From a virus (taxonomy: Duplodnaviria; Heunggongvirae; Uroviricota; Caudoviricetes): a DNA stretch of 34,039 nucleotides. The notes under the pieces are model-generated. The model made no database searches. It was given only the letters and a program-made list of their open reading frames with translations, and was not told the DNA's origin. How positions within the stretch are numbered: position 1 is the first letter of the stretch; every line of letters begins with the position of its first letter. The translations under genes and the position numbers were made by a program. Of this stretch, positions 2,849 to 12,645 are shown one piece after another. The stretch lies in IMG/VR virus record IMGVR_UViG_2617270939_000002; one strand, 5' to 3'.

Positions 2849-3268
2849 TCAGTTGTTGCCTGAGGGCATATCCATATCCAGAAGAATGCCGTCTACACCC
2901 GGATCGCTGATTGCCTGCTGGAGGCGGGCGATGATGCCGTTGTACCCCGTCATCCCCGAATACGGCTGGAGTGAGCGGGTTTTACTGACCAGCGTCCCGG
3001 AAACAGGCAGCACCGCGATACCATCAGTAACCTGGTAGCTTCGCGCTGGTTTTGGGCCCATGTCCTCATCATCACCAAAGAGAGCCAGCGGTTCAGCCAT
3101 CTGCTCTGCACCTAGCGTCACGCCCGACACGGTGTCGGTCAGACGGGTGATACCTAACTGACCAGCGAGAGCACAAAAGAAAACCCGCGCATAGGCGGGT
3201 TCAAGTAAAAGCGGCTCATTGAAGGCCATACTGGCAATGTGCGGGAGATTACGCAGCTCTGGCGTCAT
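2849..3268 (-). pseudogene. Truncated S49-family prohead protease (lambda gpC N-terminal about 140 aa only)
   Basis: MTPELRNLPHIASMAFNEPLLLEPAYARVFFCALAGQLGI...YSGMTGYNGIIARLQQAISDPGVDGILLDMD matches gpC N-terminus; ORF stops long before expected length and abuts gpU. Confidence 0.75.
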
Positions 3269-3971
3269 CGGTCCCCTCCTCATTCGATTTTTTCAGTCCA
3301 GACTCAAAGGCCGAAGCCGCCCACGCTGGCGGTTTAAGTCCCGCTGCGCGACGCTCCATCGTTTCGCGAACCTGCTGGGCAAAGATTTCCTGATAATCTT
3401 CCCCCCGTTTGGCGCATTCCTTCTCATAGGTGCTCAGCCCAGCCTCAATGAGCATGACAGCCTCCTGCACCTCCTTCAGACCGTCAATGGCCATTCTCCC
3501 GGAGCCGATCCAGTCTGCATTTCCCCAGGCGCTTCTCGCCTCCTGAAAACTGAATCGGGCTTTAGACGGTAGTGTCACCACCCGGCGAACAATGGCCTCT
3601 TCCAGCCAGCATAAAAACATCTGACAGGCCTGGCGGGAGGCAACAAATTTGCGGCGCCCCATAAAGTACGCCCAGGACTCGTTAGCACTGGCGCGGGCGG
3701 TGGAATAACTCATCTGCGAATAGTTGCGAGAGAGTTGCTCATACGACACACCCAGCCCTGCAGCAATGTAGCGCACCTCCTTCCGTAATTTCTCATTCTC
3801 AATCGCCGCGTCGCGTGCGGAATACCATTCGATAGCCGCGGAAGATTCATAGAGGACCTCATTACCTTTTCCACCGCCACGTGCTACAGGCATTCCCTGA
3901 TCCTGCCAGTTCTGAATGGTTCGCACGCTGACCCCAAATATTTCAGAAAGACGCTTTTTGTTGACCTCCAT
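3249..3971 (-). pseudogene. In-frame fusion of terminase small subunit Nu1 N-terminus (about 66 aa) to portal protein gpB C-terminal region (deletion of terminase large subunit, W and most of B)
   Basis: MEVNKKRLSEIFGVSVRTIQNWQDQGMPVARGGGKGNEVLY is Nu1-like; downstream NYSQMSYSTARASANESWAYFMGRRKFVASRQ... is portal-like. Confidence 0.75.
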
Positions 3972-4218: not shown

Positions 4219-4947
4219 CTATCGACGGCACTGCTGCCAGATAACACCACCGGGGAAACATTCCATCATGATGGCCGTGCGGACATAGGAAGCCAGTTCA
4301 TCCATCGCTTTCTTGTCTGCTGCCATTTGCTTTGTGACATCCAGCGCCGCACATTCAGCAGCGTTTTTCAGCGCGTTTTCGATCAACGTTTCAATGTTGG
4401 TATCAACACCAGGTTTAACTTTGAACTTATCGGCACTGACGGTTACCTTGTTCTGCGCTGGCTCATCACGCTGGATACCAAGGCTGATGTTGTAGATATT
4501 GGTCACCGGCTGAGGTGTTTCGATTGCCGCTGCGTGGATAGCACCATTTGCGATAGCGGCGTCCTTGATGAATGACACTCCATTGCGAATAAGTTCGAAG
4601 GAGACGGTGTCACGAATGCGCTGGTCCAGCTCGTCGATTGCCTTTTGTGCAGCAGAGGTATCAATCTCAACGCCAAGCGTCATCGAAGCGCAATATTGCT
4701 GCTCACCAAAACGCGTATTGACCAGGTGTTCAACGGCAAATTTCTGCCCTTCTGATGTCAGAAAGGTAAAGTGATTTTCTTTCTGGTATTCAGTTGCTGT
4801 GTGTCTGGTTTCAGCAAAACCAAGCTCGCGCAATTCGGCTGTGCCAGATTTAGAAGGCAGATCACCAGACAGCAACGCGCCACGGAAAAACAGCGCATAA
4901 AGCACTTCATTAGCAGCGCCAGATAGCGTAATGATTTTGTTACTCAT
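4219..4947 (-). CDS. Hypothetical phage protein (242 aa) between moron region and cos
   Basis: ATG at 4947 with AAGGA RBS; long ORF; no family recognised. Confidence 0.6.
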   Translation of the reverse strand: MSNKIITLSGAANEVLYALFFRGALLSGDLPSKSGTAELRELGFAETRHTATEYQKENHFTFLTSEGQKFAVEHLVNTRFGEQQYCASMTLGVEIDTSAAQKAIDELDQRIRDTVSFELIRNGVSFIKDAAIANGAIHAAAIETPQPVTNIYNISLGIQRDEPAQNKVTVSADKFKVKPGVDTNIETLIENALKNAAECAALDVTKQMAADKKAMDELASYVRTAIMMECFPGGVIWQQCRR

Positions 4948-5332
4948 GGAATATTTCCTTTTAGGCGTGAGCCTGTCGCACGGCAATGCCGCCCGAGAGG
5001 TAAACGCAACCTAACGGCATCACCCAGGCTCACTACTGAAAGACTCTCTTTGATGTGCGCGTGCGATGCGCGTAGAAGACTGATTTATCAACCTGTCTTT
5101 ATATCAGGATTCATTACCTGACTATTTGTGGGTAAAGTTCGTAGTGCGCTGATCGTGCAAAATGATTTTAGTTGGGAACAGTTCGCAACTCTGTCCCATA
5201 AAAATCAGCATATTCCCATCTATCCCATATCCAGCGCATTGACCATCGGGATACTGAAGGGAGATTCCATCATCTCTTAGAAAGATCACCATCTCTTTTG
5301 TTTCAATTTGCATATAGCTACCTGGAGGATTT

Positions 5333-5947
5333 ATGAATGCAAGGATTTTCATGGACTATTACCATGAGATTGATTTTCCATCTTTATTCGCGAGAGCAGT
5401 GGAAAGCGATGACGATGTGGGTACTACATTGCGCATTCACCTACTTTGTGAGCGCATGGTCGAAGCATGGATATGCGCATGCTGTGACTGCCAAGATCTC
5501 TTTGGAAGAGATAAAAACAAACTTTTAATCGAATGTAATACTAAAATATCCATGGCGGGAAACCTGGGAATCCCCCCGGAACTTATGAAATCACTTAAAA
5601 CCATCAACTCAATGCGTAATGACCTTGCACACAATCCATCAATACAAAGCATTGCTGATTCAAGGATCCAGAGCCTGAAGGATACTCTGACTGAATACTT
5701 TAAACAGCATCCAACGGAACCCAGCATGGAAGAATCAAAACTGGGTATTTTTAACGCCGAGAATCAATTAACCGAAGAAGTTTCCTTAGATAGTGACAGT
5801 TCAAAAAACAGACTTAAGTTAATCTTGCTGTTCAGCAAGTTAATGCAGGCGTTAATGCAATTAGTTGCAGCTAATCATAATGGGCGCTGGGATAACCAAT
5901 TTAGCCAATTCGTTTACCATGTGACCATGAACGCAACAAAGAGATAA
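5333..5947 (+). CDS. HEPN-like (Rx4H motif) protein, candidate abortive-infection/toxin RNase moron; alternative start at 5351
   Basis: Motif SMRNDLAHN (R-x4-H) in a predicted helical protein; opposite strand to surrounding phage genes; AT-rich; followed by hairpin terminators. Confidence 0.6.
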   Translation: MNARIFMDYYHEIDFPSLFARAVESDDDVGTTLRIHLLCERMVEAWICACCDCQDLFGRDKNKLLIECNTKISMAGNLGIPPELMKSLKTINSMRNDLAHNPSIQSIADSRIQSLKDTLTEYFKQHPTEPSMEESKLGIFNAENQLTEEVSLDSDSSKNRLKLILLFSKLMQALMQLVAANHNGRWDNQFSQFVYHVTMNATKR

Positions 5948-5983
5948 ATCCAAGCCCGTTTTGTACGGGCTGTTGCATTATCA

Positions 5984-6014
5984 CAGGCACTCAGTGAATG
6001 CCTGCTGTAATGCC
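5984..6014. repeat. 31-bp direct repeat copy 1 (contains hairpin CAGGCA-N9-TGCCTG)
   Basis: caggcactcagtgaatgcctgctgtaatgcc; second copy at 6371-6401 with one mismatch. Confidence 0.6.
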
Positions 6015-6030
6015 CGTCGTGATGACCATT

Positions 6031-6092
6031 AAAAAAGCCACTCGAAAGTGGCCTTTGTGATGGCAATAAAAAACCGCCCGTAGGCGGTTATA
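6031..6092. terminator. Two tandem hairpins flanked by A/T runs (bidirectional rho-independent terminators)
   Basis: gccact-cgaa-agtggc (6037-6052) and ccgcc-cgta-ggcgg (6074-6087), each with A-run upstream and T-rich downstream. Confidence 0.5.
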
Positions 6093-6108
6093 TTCAGCAG
6101 GTCGCATG

Positions 6109-6273
6109 TTATCTGTGAATGACAAACAGCGATTTACATTTAGGGCAAAGTAACGCCTGTTGTTGGCGTACTTTCGTGGTCGAGTGTGTGGATTTATGTC
6201 CGCATATCGGGCACATGACAGTCGTATTGGCTGCAAGCCCAACACGCTGCATTGCATAATCGAAAAATGACAT
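6109..6273 (-). CDS. Small zinc-ribbon protein (54 aa, two CxxC pairs)
   Basis: Own translation MSFFDYAMQRVGLAANTTVMCPICGHKSTHSTTKVRQQQALLCPKCKSLFVIHR; ATG at 6273; terminators immediately downstream; below the 60 aa ORF-track cutoff. Confidence 0.45.
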   Translation of the reverse strand: MSFFDYAMQRVGLAANTTVMCPICGHKSTHSTTKVRQQQALLCPKCKSLFVIHR

Positions 6274-6370
6274 GGTGGTTAACCTTTCAATGAATGGGGC
6301 TTATTATACCATGCATAGCTCAATTATTAATCAATCATCATCGCATGCTTGATGCCATTTAACTTTGTCG

Positions 6371-6401
6371 CAGGCACTCAGTGAATGTCTGCTGTAATGC
6401 C
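6371..6401. repeat. 31-bp direct repeat copy 2
   Basis: caggcactcagtgaatgtctgctgtaatgcc. Confidence 0.6.
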
Positions 6402-6714
6402 TGCTCAGCCAAGTTGAAGCACACCGTGTTCTTTTGAATCAGAGAATGCAACAAACCCAGTGTATTCGGGGATAGTGTTCCGTCATCAGCATCAAATGCT
6501 GAAATGGTTGCGTGAAGAATCAAAAATGCTCCAAATCCCGCGCCGCTGCTGCCCCTCGATGGTCAGAATCGTCAAGGAGGACCCGTTAAAAGGTAAGCAG
6601 AAAATCTGTGGTTAGAAGTGAAGGCTTTGACAACGTTCTAAATTTTATGACAGAAATAAAAAAGCATTACCTTTCAAGATAATGCTTTTTCACTCGAACT
6701 GAGTCTTATAACAA

Positions 6715-6888
6715 TTAGATTAATGTGATTTTAATATCATAGCTTTCAAGCCCAGTCATTTTTTCACGAGCATTAAACTGGATATCGGAAACTTCTTTTC
6801 CTGTCTTTTTTTTGAGTTCAATAATTTTTTTTGTGATGAATTCAGAAATATCCGCTTCAGTTTTTCTTTTTAAATCTTCGACGTTCAT
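6715..6888 (-). CDS. GnsA/GnsB-family small protein (57 aa)
   Basis: Own translation MNVEDLKRKTEADISEFITKKIIELKKKTGKEVSDIQFNAREKMTGLESYDIKITLI closely resembles E. coli GnsA/GnsB; RBS GAGAGGT. Confidence 0.8.
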   Translation of the reverse strand: MNVEDLKRKTEADISEFITKKIIELKKKTGKEVSDIQFNAREKMTGLESYDIKITLI

Positions 6889-7092
6889 TGTTTACCTCTC
6901 TTGATCTCTAACGTATCAACGCCAGGCATGTTACATTCCCCGTAGAGCACTTGTATAAGCGCTGATATGTTTAAAAGATAGAATAGAAAGACTCAATTAT
7001 CAATAGTTTGCAGTACAATCTTCATGCAAAAGAGCTCGCGACCACACAAACCACTGTACTAAAATCCGGGTCGGTCACGAAACAACCAGATC

Positions 7093-7396: not shown

Positions 7397-7612
7397 TTAT
7401 TTTCTGAATTCTAACGAAGACTGACCAGAACGAATGTACAGTGCAATATTATCAAATGTAATCATTGTTGATTTGCAAAAAATACATTTTGCTCCGAAAG
7501 GATTTTTTTCAGTAACATCAAAGTTTGACGTTCGGTACTGAGATCCGTGGCAACACGGACATCTGAAGTGAATATTATTAGTAATAACAGTTACCTTATA
7601 CAGCCACGACAT
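7397..7612 (-). CDS. Hypothetical zinc-ribbon-like small protein (71 aa; CPCC...CIFC)
   Basis: ATG at 7612; two Cys pairs about 22 residues apart; overlaps 3' end of csp gene by 17 nt; weak RBS. Confidence 0.3.
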
Positions 7613-7808
7613 TAACTGCCGTGGGGCCTTTAGGTCCCTGTTCAACACTAAATTCAACTTCCTGATTCTCATTCAACGTCTTGAAATCATTACTCTGGAT
7701 AGCAGAGAAGTGAACAAACACATCTTTACTACCATCTTTTGGAGTGATAAAACCAAAACCTTTTTCAGGATTAAACCATTTAACTAAACCAGTCATTTTA
7801 TTAGACAT
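7596..7808 (-). CDS. Cold-shock protein, CspA family (CspB-like)
   Basis: [53 protein letters not shown]... ; long AT-rich upstream leader typical of csp genes. Confidence 0.9.
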
Positions 7809-8240
7809 AAACATTACCTTTATTGAGTAAGCCCTTGGGCAGAATGGTCCGAAAAAAAATTATCAGAGAGAAAAGCTAACAAGGAAATCTCAACAGGAAC
7901 AAGGAATAAAATTATTACAGCGACTGCTTCAGATAAATTCGTTACAAACCAGACATTCATTAACGCATGATTAACCAGACATAGCAAGGTTTAGTTTTGT
8001 AAGTAAATCTCAGTGGGTTTTGATCTTAAAAATTAATTTAAATAGCTTAAATCGAAAATTATGTCATGCTGCGTAAGACCTTTATCTATCACCCTAAGTT
8101 GTCAGGGATTTTGACTCAAGGAAGAGTCGTATTTCCTTCATAGTAAAAATTCACAAATTTATCCACGAAAACCGTCAACATCTTAATTTATAGAGCTATT
8201 ATTTTTCCTCTACGGTTCATTGTTAGTATTTTTACGGACT

Positions 8241-8345
8241 CATAAATCCGCTCACATGTCATTCCTGCTCGGTAGTTTTCATCAGCGCGTTCAGCATGGT
8301 ATCGAGCTTCTTCTGCCAGGCTTCCTGGCATGTCTACGAGCATTG
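8241..8345 (-). pseudogene. Orphan 3' fragment duplicated from the gene at 9196..9669 (about 105 bp, about 80 percent identical to 9237..9341)
   Basis: Direct sequence comparison of the two stretches (ctcaca(t/c)gtcattcctgc...atcgagcttcttctgc...). Confidence 0.55.
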
Positions 8346-8380: not shown

Positions 8381-8584
8381 TTAGTTATCGAGCTGTAGAA
8401 CGCTATGCTCTAGCGACTCGGAATAGGCAATCAGCCCGGTGTACTCAGGGATAACCTCGCCATCATCCGCTTCGAACTCAGGGATTGTTCCGGTAGTGAT
8501 GGTATATTGTGGCTGGCCATCTTCTTTTGCGAAGGCAGCCAGGTCTTCAATCTGCTTAGCTGTAAGAACTACTGTAATGCTCAT
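8381..8584 (-). CDS. Hypothetical acidic small protein (67 aa)
   Basis: ORF only; SD very close to ATG. Confidence 0.35.
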   Translation of the reverse strand: MSITVVLTAKQIEDLAAFAKEDGQPQYTITTGTIPEFEADDGEVIPEYTGLIAYSESLEHSVLQLDN

Positions 8585-8968
8585 TCCTCAGTTGTTAAAA
8601 AGCCCCGCTATTGCGAGGCTTGATTGATTATGGCTAACGACTACATCGTAACGGTTATAAAAGAAGCTATTAGCCAACATGTGGTGTATGGTTGTTAACC
8701 GCCCACCAGGACAATCAACATGTCGATACTCAAAGATATCAAGATGCGTACTTTACGCCATGTGAAAAGTACTTGTCCTCATTGCTCCCGCCAGTCAAAG
8801 CACAGTCTGTCGAGAATAAAAAACAATATAACGTTAATTTGCCCCTTCTGTGGAAACATCTATCTTCCATCGGAAAGCAAACCAATAAAGTAACTGATTG
8901 ACTACCAAATAAAACTCATACTCTCAGAATGTGGCAAAGCAGACATAACCTTTTATTGTTGTTCTCAT

Positions 8969-9199
8969 TTAAGAGAATGTAACACCCAGAGTGGAGAGGT
9001 TTTTTTTCTTCTCCACAATACGGCGATCAAGTTCAGCCACTGCATGCGGGCGTATGGCATCAAGAAAGGCGTTATCCTGATAGGTAGACTGGATTGTCAC
9101 ACCAAGTCCGGCACCACTTTCCAGTATGCTTTTCTGAAGTTGTAGTTCTTTTATATCGTTATTGAGGTAATACGCTTCACTTAGGTTTTCTGCGTTCAT
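8969..9199 (-). CDS. Hypothetical phage protein (76 aa)
   Basis: ATGA start/stop overlap with upstream gene suggests translational coupling. Confidence 0.5.
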
Positions 9200-9669
9200 C
9201 TTCTAACCCTGTTGTTGTTTGACTGCCTCACTGAGTCGTAAATGCGCTCACACGTCATTCCTGCCCGGTAGCTTTCGTCAGATCGCTCAGCATAATATCG
9301 AGCTTCTTCTGCAAGGCGTCCGAGCATGTCGGCGAGCACTGCGGCGTCGGCTCCGGCTGTTTTGCTTCTGACGGCAGTGGCAAGATCTGCGGTGTGCTTT
9401 GCGGCGTCCAGGCGAGTGGCAAGCTTTGTTGCTTCGGTACGCAGCTGGTTAACAGTGGCAGACAGGCCAGCAGCAGTGGCAGCGGATTTACCGACAATAA
9501 TTGCCCAGTCACTCAGGCTTAACCCTGCAATTCTGTCGGCCAACATCCAGGACACCTCTTTTGCTGTTTTAGCTGTTTCGGCATATGCCTTCGCTGATAC
9601 ACCGCAGCCGGTCAGCGTGGTTCCTGTTCCATATGAAAGTCTGCTGTAAATGGTGCTCATTCTGGTCAT
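9196..9669 (-). CDS. Hypothetical phage protein (157 aa)
   Basis: ATG at 9669 preceded by GGAGGTGAGG; Ala/Thr-rich helical protein. Confidence 0.6.
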
Positions 9670-9912
9670 AGCCTCACCTCCGATTATTCGGATGGCGCTG
9701 TGTGTTTGAAAAGGGTCAGGCTTCACGGGCTGGATTTATCAACAAAGCACGTAGCGGATGATTCCCGTGAGCCTGAAATAGAAAAGGCCACGCAAATGCG
9801 CAGCCTGTAACCAGAAATCAATATTGTCTTTACATCAATTTTTCTTAAGGTTAAATTCTTCTGACAAGTTGATGAAAGACAACTTGAATATTAGCTATTT
9901 GTTCTCTGTTAT

Positions 9913-11737: not shown

Positions 11738-12367
11738 TCACACCAGCACAGACTTCGCCAGGTTAAACAGCGCGCGGCGTTTATCCAGCCCGTTACGTCC
11801 GCCATTGATAAGCAGCGTGACGCGCTCCACATCGCCTGAATGGAGCAGGCATCCGTGCGAGACGTAGAACCATGCGGCGGAGCGCGCAGCGTATTCATCT
11901 CGTTCCAGTAGTTCTGGATACGAAACCAGATCCAGTTTGAGAGCCTGGCCGCAACTGCGATAGTTGCTAAGCCCGGTGATTTGCTTAAGGCCTCGGCCGC
12001 GATATTTCCAGCCATCACCAGCAACCTGGTTGCCCAGGTTCTTTTTGCCCCACTCACCGCCGTAAACCAGATTGGCTATCGCTTTCTGATTTGCCGGTTG
12101 CGTTGCCGTTCTGCCGAGTGCGGCGGCCTGCTGCGCAGTAATGCGATGCTTGCCGAACGTAGGTACCAGGTTTTCTGCCGCATAGTTCAGGTTTTCCACC
12201 AGCCGGGTGAAACCGCCGGACTCATGGCCCATCTGCGCGATAAACATGGCCTGATCGAGCGGCGCGGTTATGCCGAATTCCTTCACTGCAGCATCGATAT
12301 GCGAAAACCAGCGCGAAGCGAGCCCGGCGCTAATGCCAGCCGCCTTTTGAAATTGTGATTGGTTCAC
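11738..12367 (-). CDS. Phage endolysin, glycoside hydrolase family 19 (chitinase-like lysozyme); GTG start (alternative ATG at 12415)
   Basis: MFIAQMGHESGGFTRLVENLNYAAE...GRGLKQITGLSNY motifs; GTGA overlap with upstream gene stop. Confidence 0.8.
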   Translation of the reverse strand: MNQSQFQKAAGISAGLASRWFSHIDAAVKEFGITAPLDQAMFIAQMGHESGGFTRLVENLNYAAENLVPTFGKHRITAQQAAALGRTATQPANQKAIANLVYGGEWGKKNLGNQVAGDGWKYRGRGLKQITGLSNYRSCGQALKLDLVSYPELLERDEYAARSAAWFYVSHGCLLHSGDVERVTLLINGGRNGLDKRRALFNLAKSVLV

Positions 12368-12645
12368 GTTGTGCTTTCCCCTGCTATTCTTGCGATGTTG
12401 CCACGTGCTCGCCATACAGCTATGCAGACAACAAGGTTGACGACCAACTCTCCGTAGTCGACCTGCACGTAATCACCATGCCAGATGCGGAAAGCGGTAA
12501 ACGCTGGAGCGAGGATCAGCCCATAGGCCAGAAACTCCATCAGACGGCGGCGCCGTAAGCTCCGCTTCCTGAAGAACATCAGGCGTATGGTGATGAGGAT
12601 GCATGCAACAGCGTTAATGTTCAGGATCAGTGTTTGCCACGTCAT
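12364..12645 (-). CDS. Small two-TM membrane protein in lysis cassette (holin partner/antiholin candidate)
   Basis: Hydrophobic segments plus RKRSLRRRR basic patch; ATGA coupling to the upstream holin-like gene. Confidence 0.5.
   Translation of the reverse strand: MTWQTLILNINAVACILITIRLMFFRKRSLRRRRLMEFLAYGLILAPAFTAFRIWHGDYVQVDYGELVVNLVVCIAVWRARGNIARIAGESTT

Follow-up and report, generated by a model that had tools for sequence, protein, structure and literature searches.

A ~40-nt stem-loop at cassette joints in the late operons of lambdoid and P22-like phages: a candidate RNA hairpin and homology patch for gene exchange

A defective lambdoid prophage of 34,039 nt, the whole stretch of DNA that we analysed and refer to as the window, has its late operon on the minus strand, and within this operon a very small gene lies between two nearly identical sequences. 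The question raised by this locus is what these sequences are: a sequence-only reading of the window had taken them either for the footprint of a small inserted cassette or for a repeated protein-binding site. The pair with its one mismatch is real. On the plus strand, 31-mers at 5984-6014 and 6371-6401 differ solely by C or T at 6001/6388, which confirms the coordinates reported earlier, and the chance expectation for a 31-mer match, estimated by dinucleotide shuffles, is 0. Similarity extends past the 31-mer to 37 nt with 92% identity (5978-6014 and 6365-6401), and a covariance model recognizes both repeats as 40-nt elements on the minus strand, with none further in the 34-kb window. On the minus (late-operon) strand the sequence of the ~40-nt element is GGCATTACAGCAGGCATTCACTGAGTGCCTGTGATAATGC, a stem-loop that was previously unannotated.

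Copy 1 (5975..6014, minus strand; sequence GGCAUUACAGCAGGCAUUCACUGAGUGCCUGUGAUAAUGC) is intact and scores 66.5 bits with the covariance model (E = 8e-15). Its fold consists of a 6-bp lower stem, a CA/GA 2x2 internal loop, a 10-bp upper stem and an ACU loop, with an energy of -22.1 kcal/mol and z = -5.75, and the same 40-mer occurs without a single change in phi80, Nissle 1917 and Klebsiella phages. Copy 2 (6362..6401, minus strand; 59.4 bits) is eroded: a G-to-A change in the 5' stem arm creates an A.C mismatch on the minus strand, the lower stem is degraded, the 3' block reads CGACAAAGU instead of YGAUAAUGC, and the fold is weak (-9.6 kcal/mol, z = -1.0). Thus, the CAGGCA-N9-TGCCTG dyad that had been ascribed to each copy holds for copy 1, as part of a longer fold, but fails in copy 2 because of the A.C mismatch. 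The copy 2 variant is found 5' of ynfU in two loci (L001, L064) and 5' of a different gene block in three (L033, L063, L121).

The 54-aa CxxC...CxxC open reading frame noticed earlier between the repeats is present at 6109..6273 on the minus strand (ORF list and Pfam). Its product is a zinc-ribbon protein that matches the Pfam family YnfU (PF23499) with 32.3 bits, at a cut-off of 27, and the identical protein in strain EC2641 bears the RefSeq name 'YnfU family zinc-binding protein'. A putative sigma-70-type promoter at 6303..6330 (minus strand; TTAATA, a 16-nt spacer, TG-n-TATAAT), a match to the consensus only, agrees with it at 10 of 12 positions and has in addition the TG of an extended -10. 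Both terminator hairpins reported between the repeats are there too, and both are of the intrinsic type on the minus strand. Terminator 1 (6062..6089, minus strand; AACCGCCTACGGGCGGTT + TTTTATT) has a 7-bp stem with five G-C pairs, followed by TTTTATTGCC, and terminator 2, read from the sequence (6030..6052, minus strand; GCCACTTTCGAGTGGC + TTTTTT), has the form GCCACU-UUCG-AGUGGC followed by UUUUUU. The stem of terminator 2 is also listed on the plus strand by the terminator scan. Morons of lambdoid phages, as known from the work of Juhala and Hendrix, are promoter-gene-terminator units in late operons, and the segment between the copies, with its own predicted promoter, ynfU and two terminators, is a textbook moron. 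Neither a transposase nor terminal inverted repeats are found in the sequence and ORF list of this 348-nt cassette. The ynfU unit, the cargo of the cassette, occurs in 10 loci, next to two upstream genes and at least three downstream contexts, with the element 89-91 nt 5' of its start in 8 of the 10.

The surroundings of the cassette in the window are those of a late operon. Its lysis region includes an endolysin-like gene (11738-12415, minus strand) and a DUF2514 spanin (9196-9726, minus strand); after the lysis genes come small accessory genes (csp, YmcF-like, GnsB) and then the ynfU unit, and 3' of that unit on the late strand follow a Nu1-like packaging gene fused to the end of a portal gene, and the tail genes U and V. 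Next to copy 2 lies a frameshifted remnant of a 67-aa accessory gene (6411..6526, minus strand), recognized by tblastn in two frames and by the frame translations and assigned to phrog_9518 through the PHROG match of an intact 67-aa family member; its C-terminal frame (...HGVLQLG, then stop) ends a few bases before copy 2. Beyond copy 1 lies the ORF of a convergent 204-aa accessory gene (5333..5947, plus strand; phrog_5483, PHROG match E = 1.6e-80), which in another locus (L107) is flanked by two elements. The DNA of this gene up to the element is 100% identical in Nissle 1917 and 99.9% identical in phi80 lysogens. Between this gene and copy 1, the sequence AGCCCG-N7-CGGGCT (5953..5971, no strand assigned) can be read as a hairpin; phi80 and Nissle 1917 have kept it along with the 204-aa gene, and it is probably a terminator for convergent transcripts.

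When positions 5300-7000 were compared by megablast with 5,426 E. coli genomes, two kinds of matches were obtained, both of which broke at copy 1. One, to Nissle 1917 and the phi80 lysogens (DH5-alpha, DH10B), covered 5300-6014 and ended at the last base of the repeat; the other, to strain EC2641, began at 5975 and continued onward. The corresponding site of Nissle 1917 and phi80 has one copy only, adjoined directly by a 65-aa gene or rha, and no ynfU; thus, the intervening segment, whose presence or absence elsewhere had been proposed as a check, is indeed absent from these two. E. coli genomes with the element have it at one place only. The Qin prophage of E. coli K-12, which has ynfU, gnsB and cspI, contains no copy (best match 15.5 bits), and since K-12 is without the element, the published K-12 end-mapping and RNase data sets are not usable for it.

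Outside this species the element is widespread. A 43-nt query detected it in 53 GenBank phage records, including phi80, mEp390, phiP27, cdtI, ST64B, Fels-1 and many Klebsiella prophages, as well as Pectobacterium ZF40, Edwardsiella GF-2 and an Actinobacillus phage; the P22 copy was found by covariance-model search. In phi80 the element occupies 44298-44337, and in ST64B 39243-39280. An exact 24-nt core matches more than 120 IMG/VR viral contigs. Among 127 instances from IMG/VR and reference loci, there are 112 distinct combinations of flanks, unrelated on both sides, and the similarity between the instances begins at GCATTA and stops at TAATG. A structure-aware pattern matched 94 places in the one-genome-per-species GTDB, of which 79 are true copies and the remaining 15 are about the chance number estimated from the 19 fixed bases of the pattern. 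Nearly all the true copies are in Enterobacterales (Enterobacter, Klebsiella, Citrobacter, Kluyvera, Kosakonia, Pantoea, Erwinia, Pectobacterium, Serratia, Rahnella, Edwardsiella, Salmonella). One true GTDB copy is in a record labelled Chryseobacterium (L190).

The position of the element is fixed. In annotated phages the order is always lysis genes, element, packaging genes (terminase), with the element on the late strand. Loci were scanned with nhmmer and the covariance model, and P22, phiP27, one Klebsiella phage and the window, when scanned at full sensitivity, had copies only in the lysis-to-packaging interval: one in P22 (41.7 kb; 40309-40348, between rha and orf80), one in phiP27 (42.6 kb; between L33 and an HNH endonuclease gene), three in Klebsiella phage ST11-VIM1phi8.2 (48 kb; one of them weak, 19.1 bits, all in the lysis-to-terminase interval), and the two in the window (34 kb; 5975-6014 and 6362-6401). 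An extra P22 match inside eaA (16.6 bits, E = 0.05) is weak and was taken as spurious. The finding that would have refuted the sequence-only reading, a common genome-wide repeat unrelated to this locus, is half borne out: copies are very frequent among phages, but each scanned genome has them in this one interval only, and they are tied to loci of this kind. Clustering of ORFs from 203 loci places clusters of spanins, endolysins and holins 0.9-2.2 kb upstream of the element and those of terminases and portal proteins 0.8-3.3 kb downstream, all co-oriented with it. In about 125 of 183 contexts, the upstream gene has its stop codon -2 to +4 nt from the element, and downstream start codons are mostly 10-60 nt past it.

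At many loci, arrays of two to four copies on the late strand separate single accessory genes. The length between copies is 271 nt for the 81-aa DUF2560 gene (P22 orf80 family; copies spaced at 311 nt), 303-314 nt for a small membrane protein, 348-352 nt for ynfU, ~705 nt for a BamE-like lipoprotein, 988 nt for rha, 1004 nt for the 204-aa gene of the window, which stands in reverse orientation, and ~295 nt for a unit without a clear ORF. The recurrence of such single-gene units between copies indicates that the element punctuates single-gene cassettes. A gene in an array often has copies of different sequence variants on its two sides.

Comparison of loci that share one side of an element showed how the cassettes are joined. 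Copy 1 together with the DNA downstream of it, which carries the 204-aa gene, is constant behind four different upstream contexts (the ynfU terminators, Rha, the 65-aa gene and the context in L107), and copy 2 together with the DNA upstream of it, which carries the remnant of the 67-aa gene, is constant before two different downstream blocks. By this comparison, both window copies are mosaic joints, at which one side stays constant, the other is replaced, and the switch falls inside the element or at its edge. The variable 3' block of the element travels with the downstream cassette. A variant with A for G in the stem has two upstream and three downstream contexts, which suggests scattered crossovers rather than one fixed point of exchange. 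The junction pattern as such is predicted by homologous and by site-specific exchange alike. About 30 bp is quoted as the minimum homology for Red-beta recombination (PMC3945230), and since the 31-40 bp of identity between elements reach this minimum, phage recombinases could use them. Cassettes would then be gained, lost and shuffled through homologous recombination between elements. As the two window copies are of the same variant and 92% identical, ynfU should be easily lost again.

What is kept among the copies was examined in 93 distinct variants of the first locus set and in 141 after the GTDB loci had been added. The element has two conserved blocks, CATTACAG and YGATAATG, and a conserved 2x2 internal loop with C-A opposite G-A, a conservation that is overstated, as the sequences are related to one another and the collecting patterns themselves fixed some columns (the core in IMG/VR, the flanking blocks in GTDB). 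Secondary array copies, which are free of the constraints of both collecting patterns, show the same design. The upper stem is 9-10 bp long and is closed by loops of 3-7 nt, and its sequence varies with the pairing kept: CAGGCA/TGCCTG, CAGCCC/GGGCTG, GAGCCA/TGGCTT, AAGCTC/GAGCTT, AAGTCA/TGACTT and GAGGCT/AGCCTC all occur. Nine diverse variants share one fold with energies from -15 to -25 kcal/mol; z is between -5.2 and -7.0 in eight of them and -3.0 in the ST64B variant.

In an alignment of 85 distinct sequences out of the first 93 variants, 95.1% of cells are paired. Shuffles gave 87.1% (0 of 500 reached the observed value, which is not to be read as a probability, as the sequences are related to one another), and sliding the partners gave 32-45%. 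Double changes are frequent at three stem pairs (CG/AU/GU, GC/CG and AU/CG), and the P22 copy has a compensated change from A-U to G-C at an otherwise invariant pair. G.U pairs are common (250 of the 2073 pairs in the predicted folds). Of the 141 variants, 130 fold more stably as the late strand than as its complement; the average energies are -18.4 kcal/mol for the late strand and -14.4 kcal/mol for the other. The lower stem is without covariation, and its outermost pairs are poorly kept.

We compared the element with features that could account for a sequence of this kind. With E allowed up to 10, no Rfam 15 family gave a match overlapping either copy, and no gathering score was reached in the window or in 13 related loci. 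At the P22 copy there is no Rfam match on the same strand; the only overlapping one, AaHKsRNA82, is on the opposite strand and sub-threshold (21.7 bits, against a gathering score of 51.4). In none of the papers searched is the sequence of the element printed, papers on prophage transcriptomes and on the Lula/phi80 phage make no mention of it, and it is unannotated in the carefully annotated P22 and phi80 records. The M3 RNA of phi80, an RNase P substrate considered as a possible identity of the element, was rejected, since the phi80 record places it at 36229-36288 as the oop homologue, 8 kb away from the element. A coding remnant (ALQQAFTECL, then two stops, on the minus strand) was rejected, as unrelated upstream genes have their own stop just before the element and the flanks differ. 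The ATG of UAAUG does not appear to serve as a start codon: an ORF of at least 45 codons follows in 33 of 181 contexts, about the rough chance rate.

Several regulatory and mobile signals were rejected as well. The hairpin is not an intrinsic terminator, since it has no U-tract, is followed by GAUAAUGC and is absent from the terminator scan. The element contains a -10-like GATAAT, preceded by TG in about two thirds of variants, but it is not a full sigma-70 promoter, as there is no -35 at 16-18 bp and the promoter scan lists nothing at either copy. A sigma-54 promoter is resembled by GGCAC-N10-TGC on the plus strand, but the spacing from GG to GC is two bases too long. The core sites of attC, R'' (RYYYAAC) and R' (GTTRRRY), are not found at the base of the hairpin, where the blocks CATTACAG and YGATAATG stand instead. 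No IntI, attI or Pc was found next to the array; the neighbours of the element are lysis and packaging genes, and the annotated integrases of phiP27 and of the Klebsiella phage are far off, at the prophage end. A REP/BIME identity was dismissed in view of one to three copies per scanned phage genome, all in one interval, versus many dispersed chromosomal copies. Finally, no partner protein emerged: when 7217 ORFs from 203 loci were clustered, even the most frequent family reached no more than 75 loci, and the leading clusters consist of alternative spanins, endolysins, holins and terminases.

With high confidence, then, the element is a widespread, structured, inter-cassette element and mosaic joint. 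The reading that we consider probable is that this ~40-nt late-operon stem-loop of lambdoid and P22-like Enterobacterales phages is both an intercistronic RNA hairpin and a homology patch for the exchange of cassettes; in the mechanism, RNA punctuation together with homologous exchange, we place moderate confidence. Covariation, strand bias and constant orientation all speak for a role as an RNA hairpin, which would be kept in the Q-antiterminated late transcript. There it would act as intercistronic punctuation and protect the 3' end of the upstream message, and it might be cut by a host double-strand RNase and keep adjacent genes insulated. The conserved internal loop and flanking blocks may be read by a putative factor, since conserved unpaired bases call for a specific reader, and because no phage protein co-occurs with the element, a host-encoded reader is more likely than a phage-encoded one. 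For any particular nuclease or binding factor our confidence is low.

Other explanations start from the same features. The element might be a composite regulatory cassette similar to the PeSL motifs of T4-type phages, in which TGnGATAAT serves as an extended -10 promoter that provides each downstream cassette with a transcript of its own in the lysogen, the hairpin shields it from transcription coming from upstream, and recombination is a by-product. The 3' end of the commonest variant, TG-N-GATAAT, does match the extended -10 consensus, the downstream start codons lie mostly 10-60 nt past the element, and PeSLs flank ORFans and mediate shuffling (PMC2839356, PMC4122927). However, a -35 is absent at 16-18 bp, the TG is missing in about one third of variants (column 31 = T), the hairpin without its U-tract is no intrinsic terminator, and this reading gives no reason for the conserved block CATTACAG at the 5' end or for the conserved unpaired C and A. 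In the window, moreover, a promoter in copy 1 would point straight into a terminator and be antisense to the 204-aa gene, the -10-like hexamer is no longer present in copy 2, and ynfU has its own predicted promoter. We therefore hold this possibility to be doubtful. An insertion footprint, namely a mobile ynfU element that duplicated a 31-37 bp target, would account for the difference between the occupied site, with two copies, and the empty site of Nissle 1917 and phi80, with one, and the part of the earlier proposal that saw a small inserted cassette bracketed by the repeats stands, as those genomes have one copy and no ynfU and the ynfU unit occurs elsewhere with other neighbours. The duplication itself does not stand: this 40-nt element is found beside many genes unrelated to each other, in several hundred loci of phages and prophages, array copies around one gene are often different variants, and the cassette holds only ynfU, a promoter and terminators, with no transposase or terminal inverted repeats in its 348 nt. 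Known target duplications are far shorter than 37-40 bp, and we give this origin almost no credence.

An attC-like or IS200/IS605-like site-specific recombination site, folded as single-stranded DNA and used by a putative recombinase to capture and excise cassettes, would fit the anatomy, with conserved, partly inverted base blocks, a variable paired centre, co-oriented single-gene arrays and strand-specific folding, and it would also fit the 3' block that moves with the downstream cassette. However, neither a recombinase nor any other family consistently co-occurs (the best cluster is in 75 of 203 loci), the base blocks differ from the attC core sites, the contexts of the A-for-G variant suggest crossovers on both sides, and phage recombinases already account for exchange at 30-40 bp of homology; such a site is unlikely. 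An operator in double-stranded DNA, bound by a dimeric regulator (Rha or a late regulator, for example), would explain the dyad symmetry and the highly conserved outer blocks, and corresponds to the repeated protein-binding site of the sequence-only reading. It fits poorly, as compensatory stem changes preserve pairing rather than sequence, G.U is tolerated only on the late strand, the orientation relative to transcription is fixed and no regulator consistently co-occurs, and we regard it as very improbable. A broader reading, to which we assign a low though not trivial likelihood, is an integron-like cassette platform of the late operon, in which the hairpin would be a dedicated signal governing both the expression and the capture and loss of cassettes, read by a putative conserved factor; this factor may act on the late transcript, as a nuclease or RNA-binding protein would, or on the folded DNA strand, in which case it would be a recombinase.

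The intercistronic hairpin and homology patch that we favour bears on the long debate about phage mosaic joints, in which the conserved 'linker' sequences of the modular theory are set against random illegitimate joining followed by selection. The element is a concrete and widespread linker in the best-studied group of phages, including P22 and phi80: 40 nt, a length usable by recombinases, placed exactly at the joints of accessory cassettes, among them virulence-type and defence-type morons. Its covarying, strand-specific hairpin with a conserved internal loop makes it a candidate for a new cis-acting RNA motif of late transcripts. In practice, the motif locates accessory cargo in enterobacterial prophages, offers a natural landing pad for phage engineering and gives direct experimental access to the gain and loss of morons.

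The element recalls several known systems without coinciding with any of them. The intercistronic RNase III hairpins of T7 and the sib site of λ are hairpins with internal loops in a long phage transcript, and provide the upstream message with a protective 3' hairpin. REP sequences are imperfect palindromes of ~35-40 nt, transcribed, located just after the stop codons of operons, and stabilize the upstream mRNA; a chromosome contains hundreds of them, and they are associated with RAYT transposases. By its placement after stop codons and by its upper stem, small internal loop and A-U lower stem, the element recalls both the T7 RNase III sites and the REP stabilizers. It shares with the former the intercistronic position, the internal loop and sequence conservation among sites, but is shorter (~16 bp plus a 2x2 loop, or ~18 helical positions). 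The preferred substrate of RNase III is ~22 bp (PMC6212723), and the predicted shape of the element would be compatible with an RNase III site, though a short one. With REP/BIME it shares the size, the palindrome and the location just after stop codons, but there are one to four copies per phage, in one interval only, and the sequence is unrelated.

The nearest described counterpart of the element is the PeSL (promoter-early stem-loop) of T4-type phages, a conserved stem-loop motif that lies beside ORFans and brings about the shuffling of modules (Arbiol et al. 2010, PMC2839356; Comeau et al. 2014, PMC4122927). In both cases, short conserved stem-loop motifs flank small accessory genes in a plastic region of the phage genome, the indel or replacement joints between related phages fall in the motif, and the logic of the cassettes is integron-like without a dedicated recombinase. 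PeSLs, however, combine a strong sigma-70 early promoter with a real terminator, whereas the element has neither a -35 nor a U-tract; they belong to several hyperplastic regions of virulent T4-like myoviruses, in contrast to one late-operon interval of temperate phages, and the conserved internal loop and covarying stem are features of the element. The likeness to attC is one of anatomy only, and consists in a conserved base, a variable centre with kept structure, strand-specific folding and arrays of co-oriented cassettes; an integron integrase, attI or Pc is not found nearby, the core sequences are different, the length is 40 nt rather than 57-141 nt, and crossovers in the element are seemingly not at one point. 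Morons, for their part, have been described as insertions between genes with no flanking sequence in common, whereas here a structured, shared element marks the points of insertion.

The window encodes an ORF (3249-3971, minus strand) in which the N-terminal ~98 residues of a Nu1 small terminase are fused to the C-terminal ~44 of a lambda-type portal protein, directly followed by the tail genes U and V. As the start of Nu1 is joined in this way to the end of the portal gene, with U and V next in order, the large terminase and head genes have been lost and the prophage is defective. Between Nu1 and the 204-aa gene lie two further minus-strand ORFs, of 255 aa (4219-4986) and 76 aa (5122-5352). 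No copy of the stem-loop element was found in the window around either of them; in the related locus L107, a weak copy (14 bits) is present on the far side of the 204-aa gene. The phi80 lysogen DH10B, in its match to the window, carries an ORF at the position equivalent to that of the 255-aa ORF, and in the phi80 record the ORF adjoining cosQ is noted as similar to N15 gp59.

The late operon of the window also contains a cold-shock moron block on the minus strand, composed of a cspA-thermoregulator 5' UTR (Rfam RF01766, 141 bits, 7537-7953), a CspI/CspG-like gene 3' of it (7596-7814), and, overlapping it, an ORF with a match to Pfam YmcF-like (7397-7672). A GnsB-family gene (6715-6888) is located nearby. 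After an intact 67-aa phrog_9518 gene (8381-8584, minus strand) comes an isolated piece of the spanin gene's C-terminal end (8188-8343, minus strand; the spanin gene itself is at 9196-9726), and a second, frameshifted copy of the 67-aa gene (6411-6526, minus strand) lies just before the eroded copy of the element. It looks as if the csp/gns block was inserted via recombination between duplicated segments of the end of the lysis module. A second zinc-ribbon mini-ORF of the window (57 aa, CPHC...CPFC, 8720-8893) is on the opposite, plus strand, and no element copy adjoins it there. Its counterpart in E. coli EC2641 is likewise annotated as a YnfU-family protein.

In other phage and prophage loci the element occurs in arrays, of four copies in L065 and L087, and of three in L023, L053, L073, and L075, in which adjacent copies differ in their stem variant. 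A unit of ~295 nt recurs between the copies of these arrays, without a convincing late-strand ORF, and could encode either a small RNA or a tiny protein. The two copies in L012 (890-929 and 977-1016) are separated by only ~47-49 nt, and this closely spaced pair looks like an empty cassette.

In P22, the start of the annotated orf25 (25 codons, 40329-40406) falls within the element (40309-40348), and orf25 is unlikely to be a genuine gene. Three related loci carry STnc100 (Rfam, 83-86 bits) on the late strand, upstream of their lysis genes, namely L023 (4210-4395), L053 (5622-5810), and Fels-1 (4264-4482). In these phages, STnc100 possibly corresponds to the short leader transcript from pR'.
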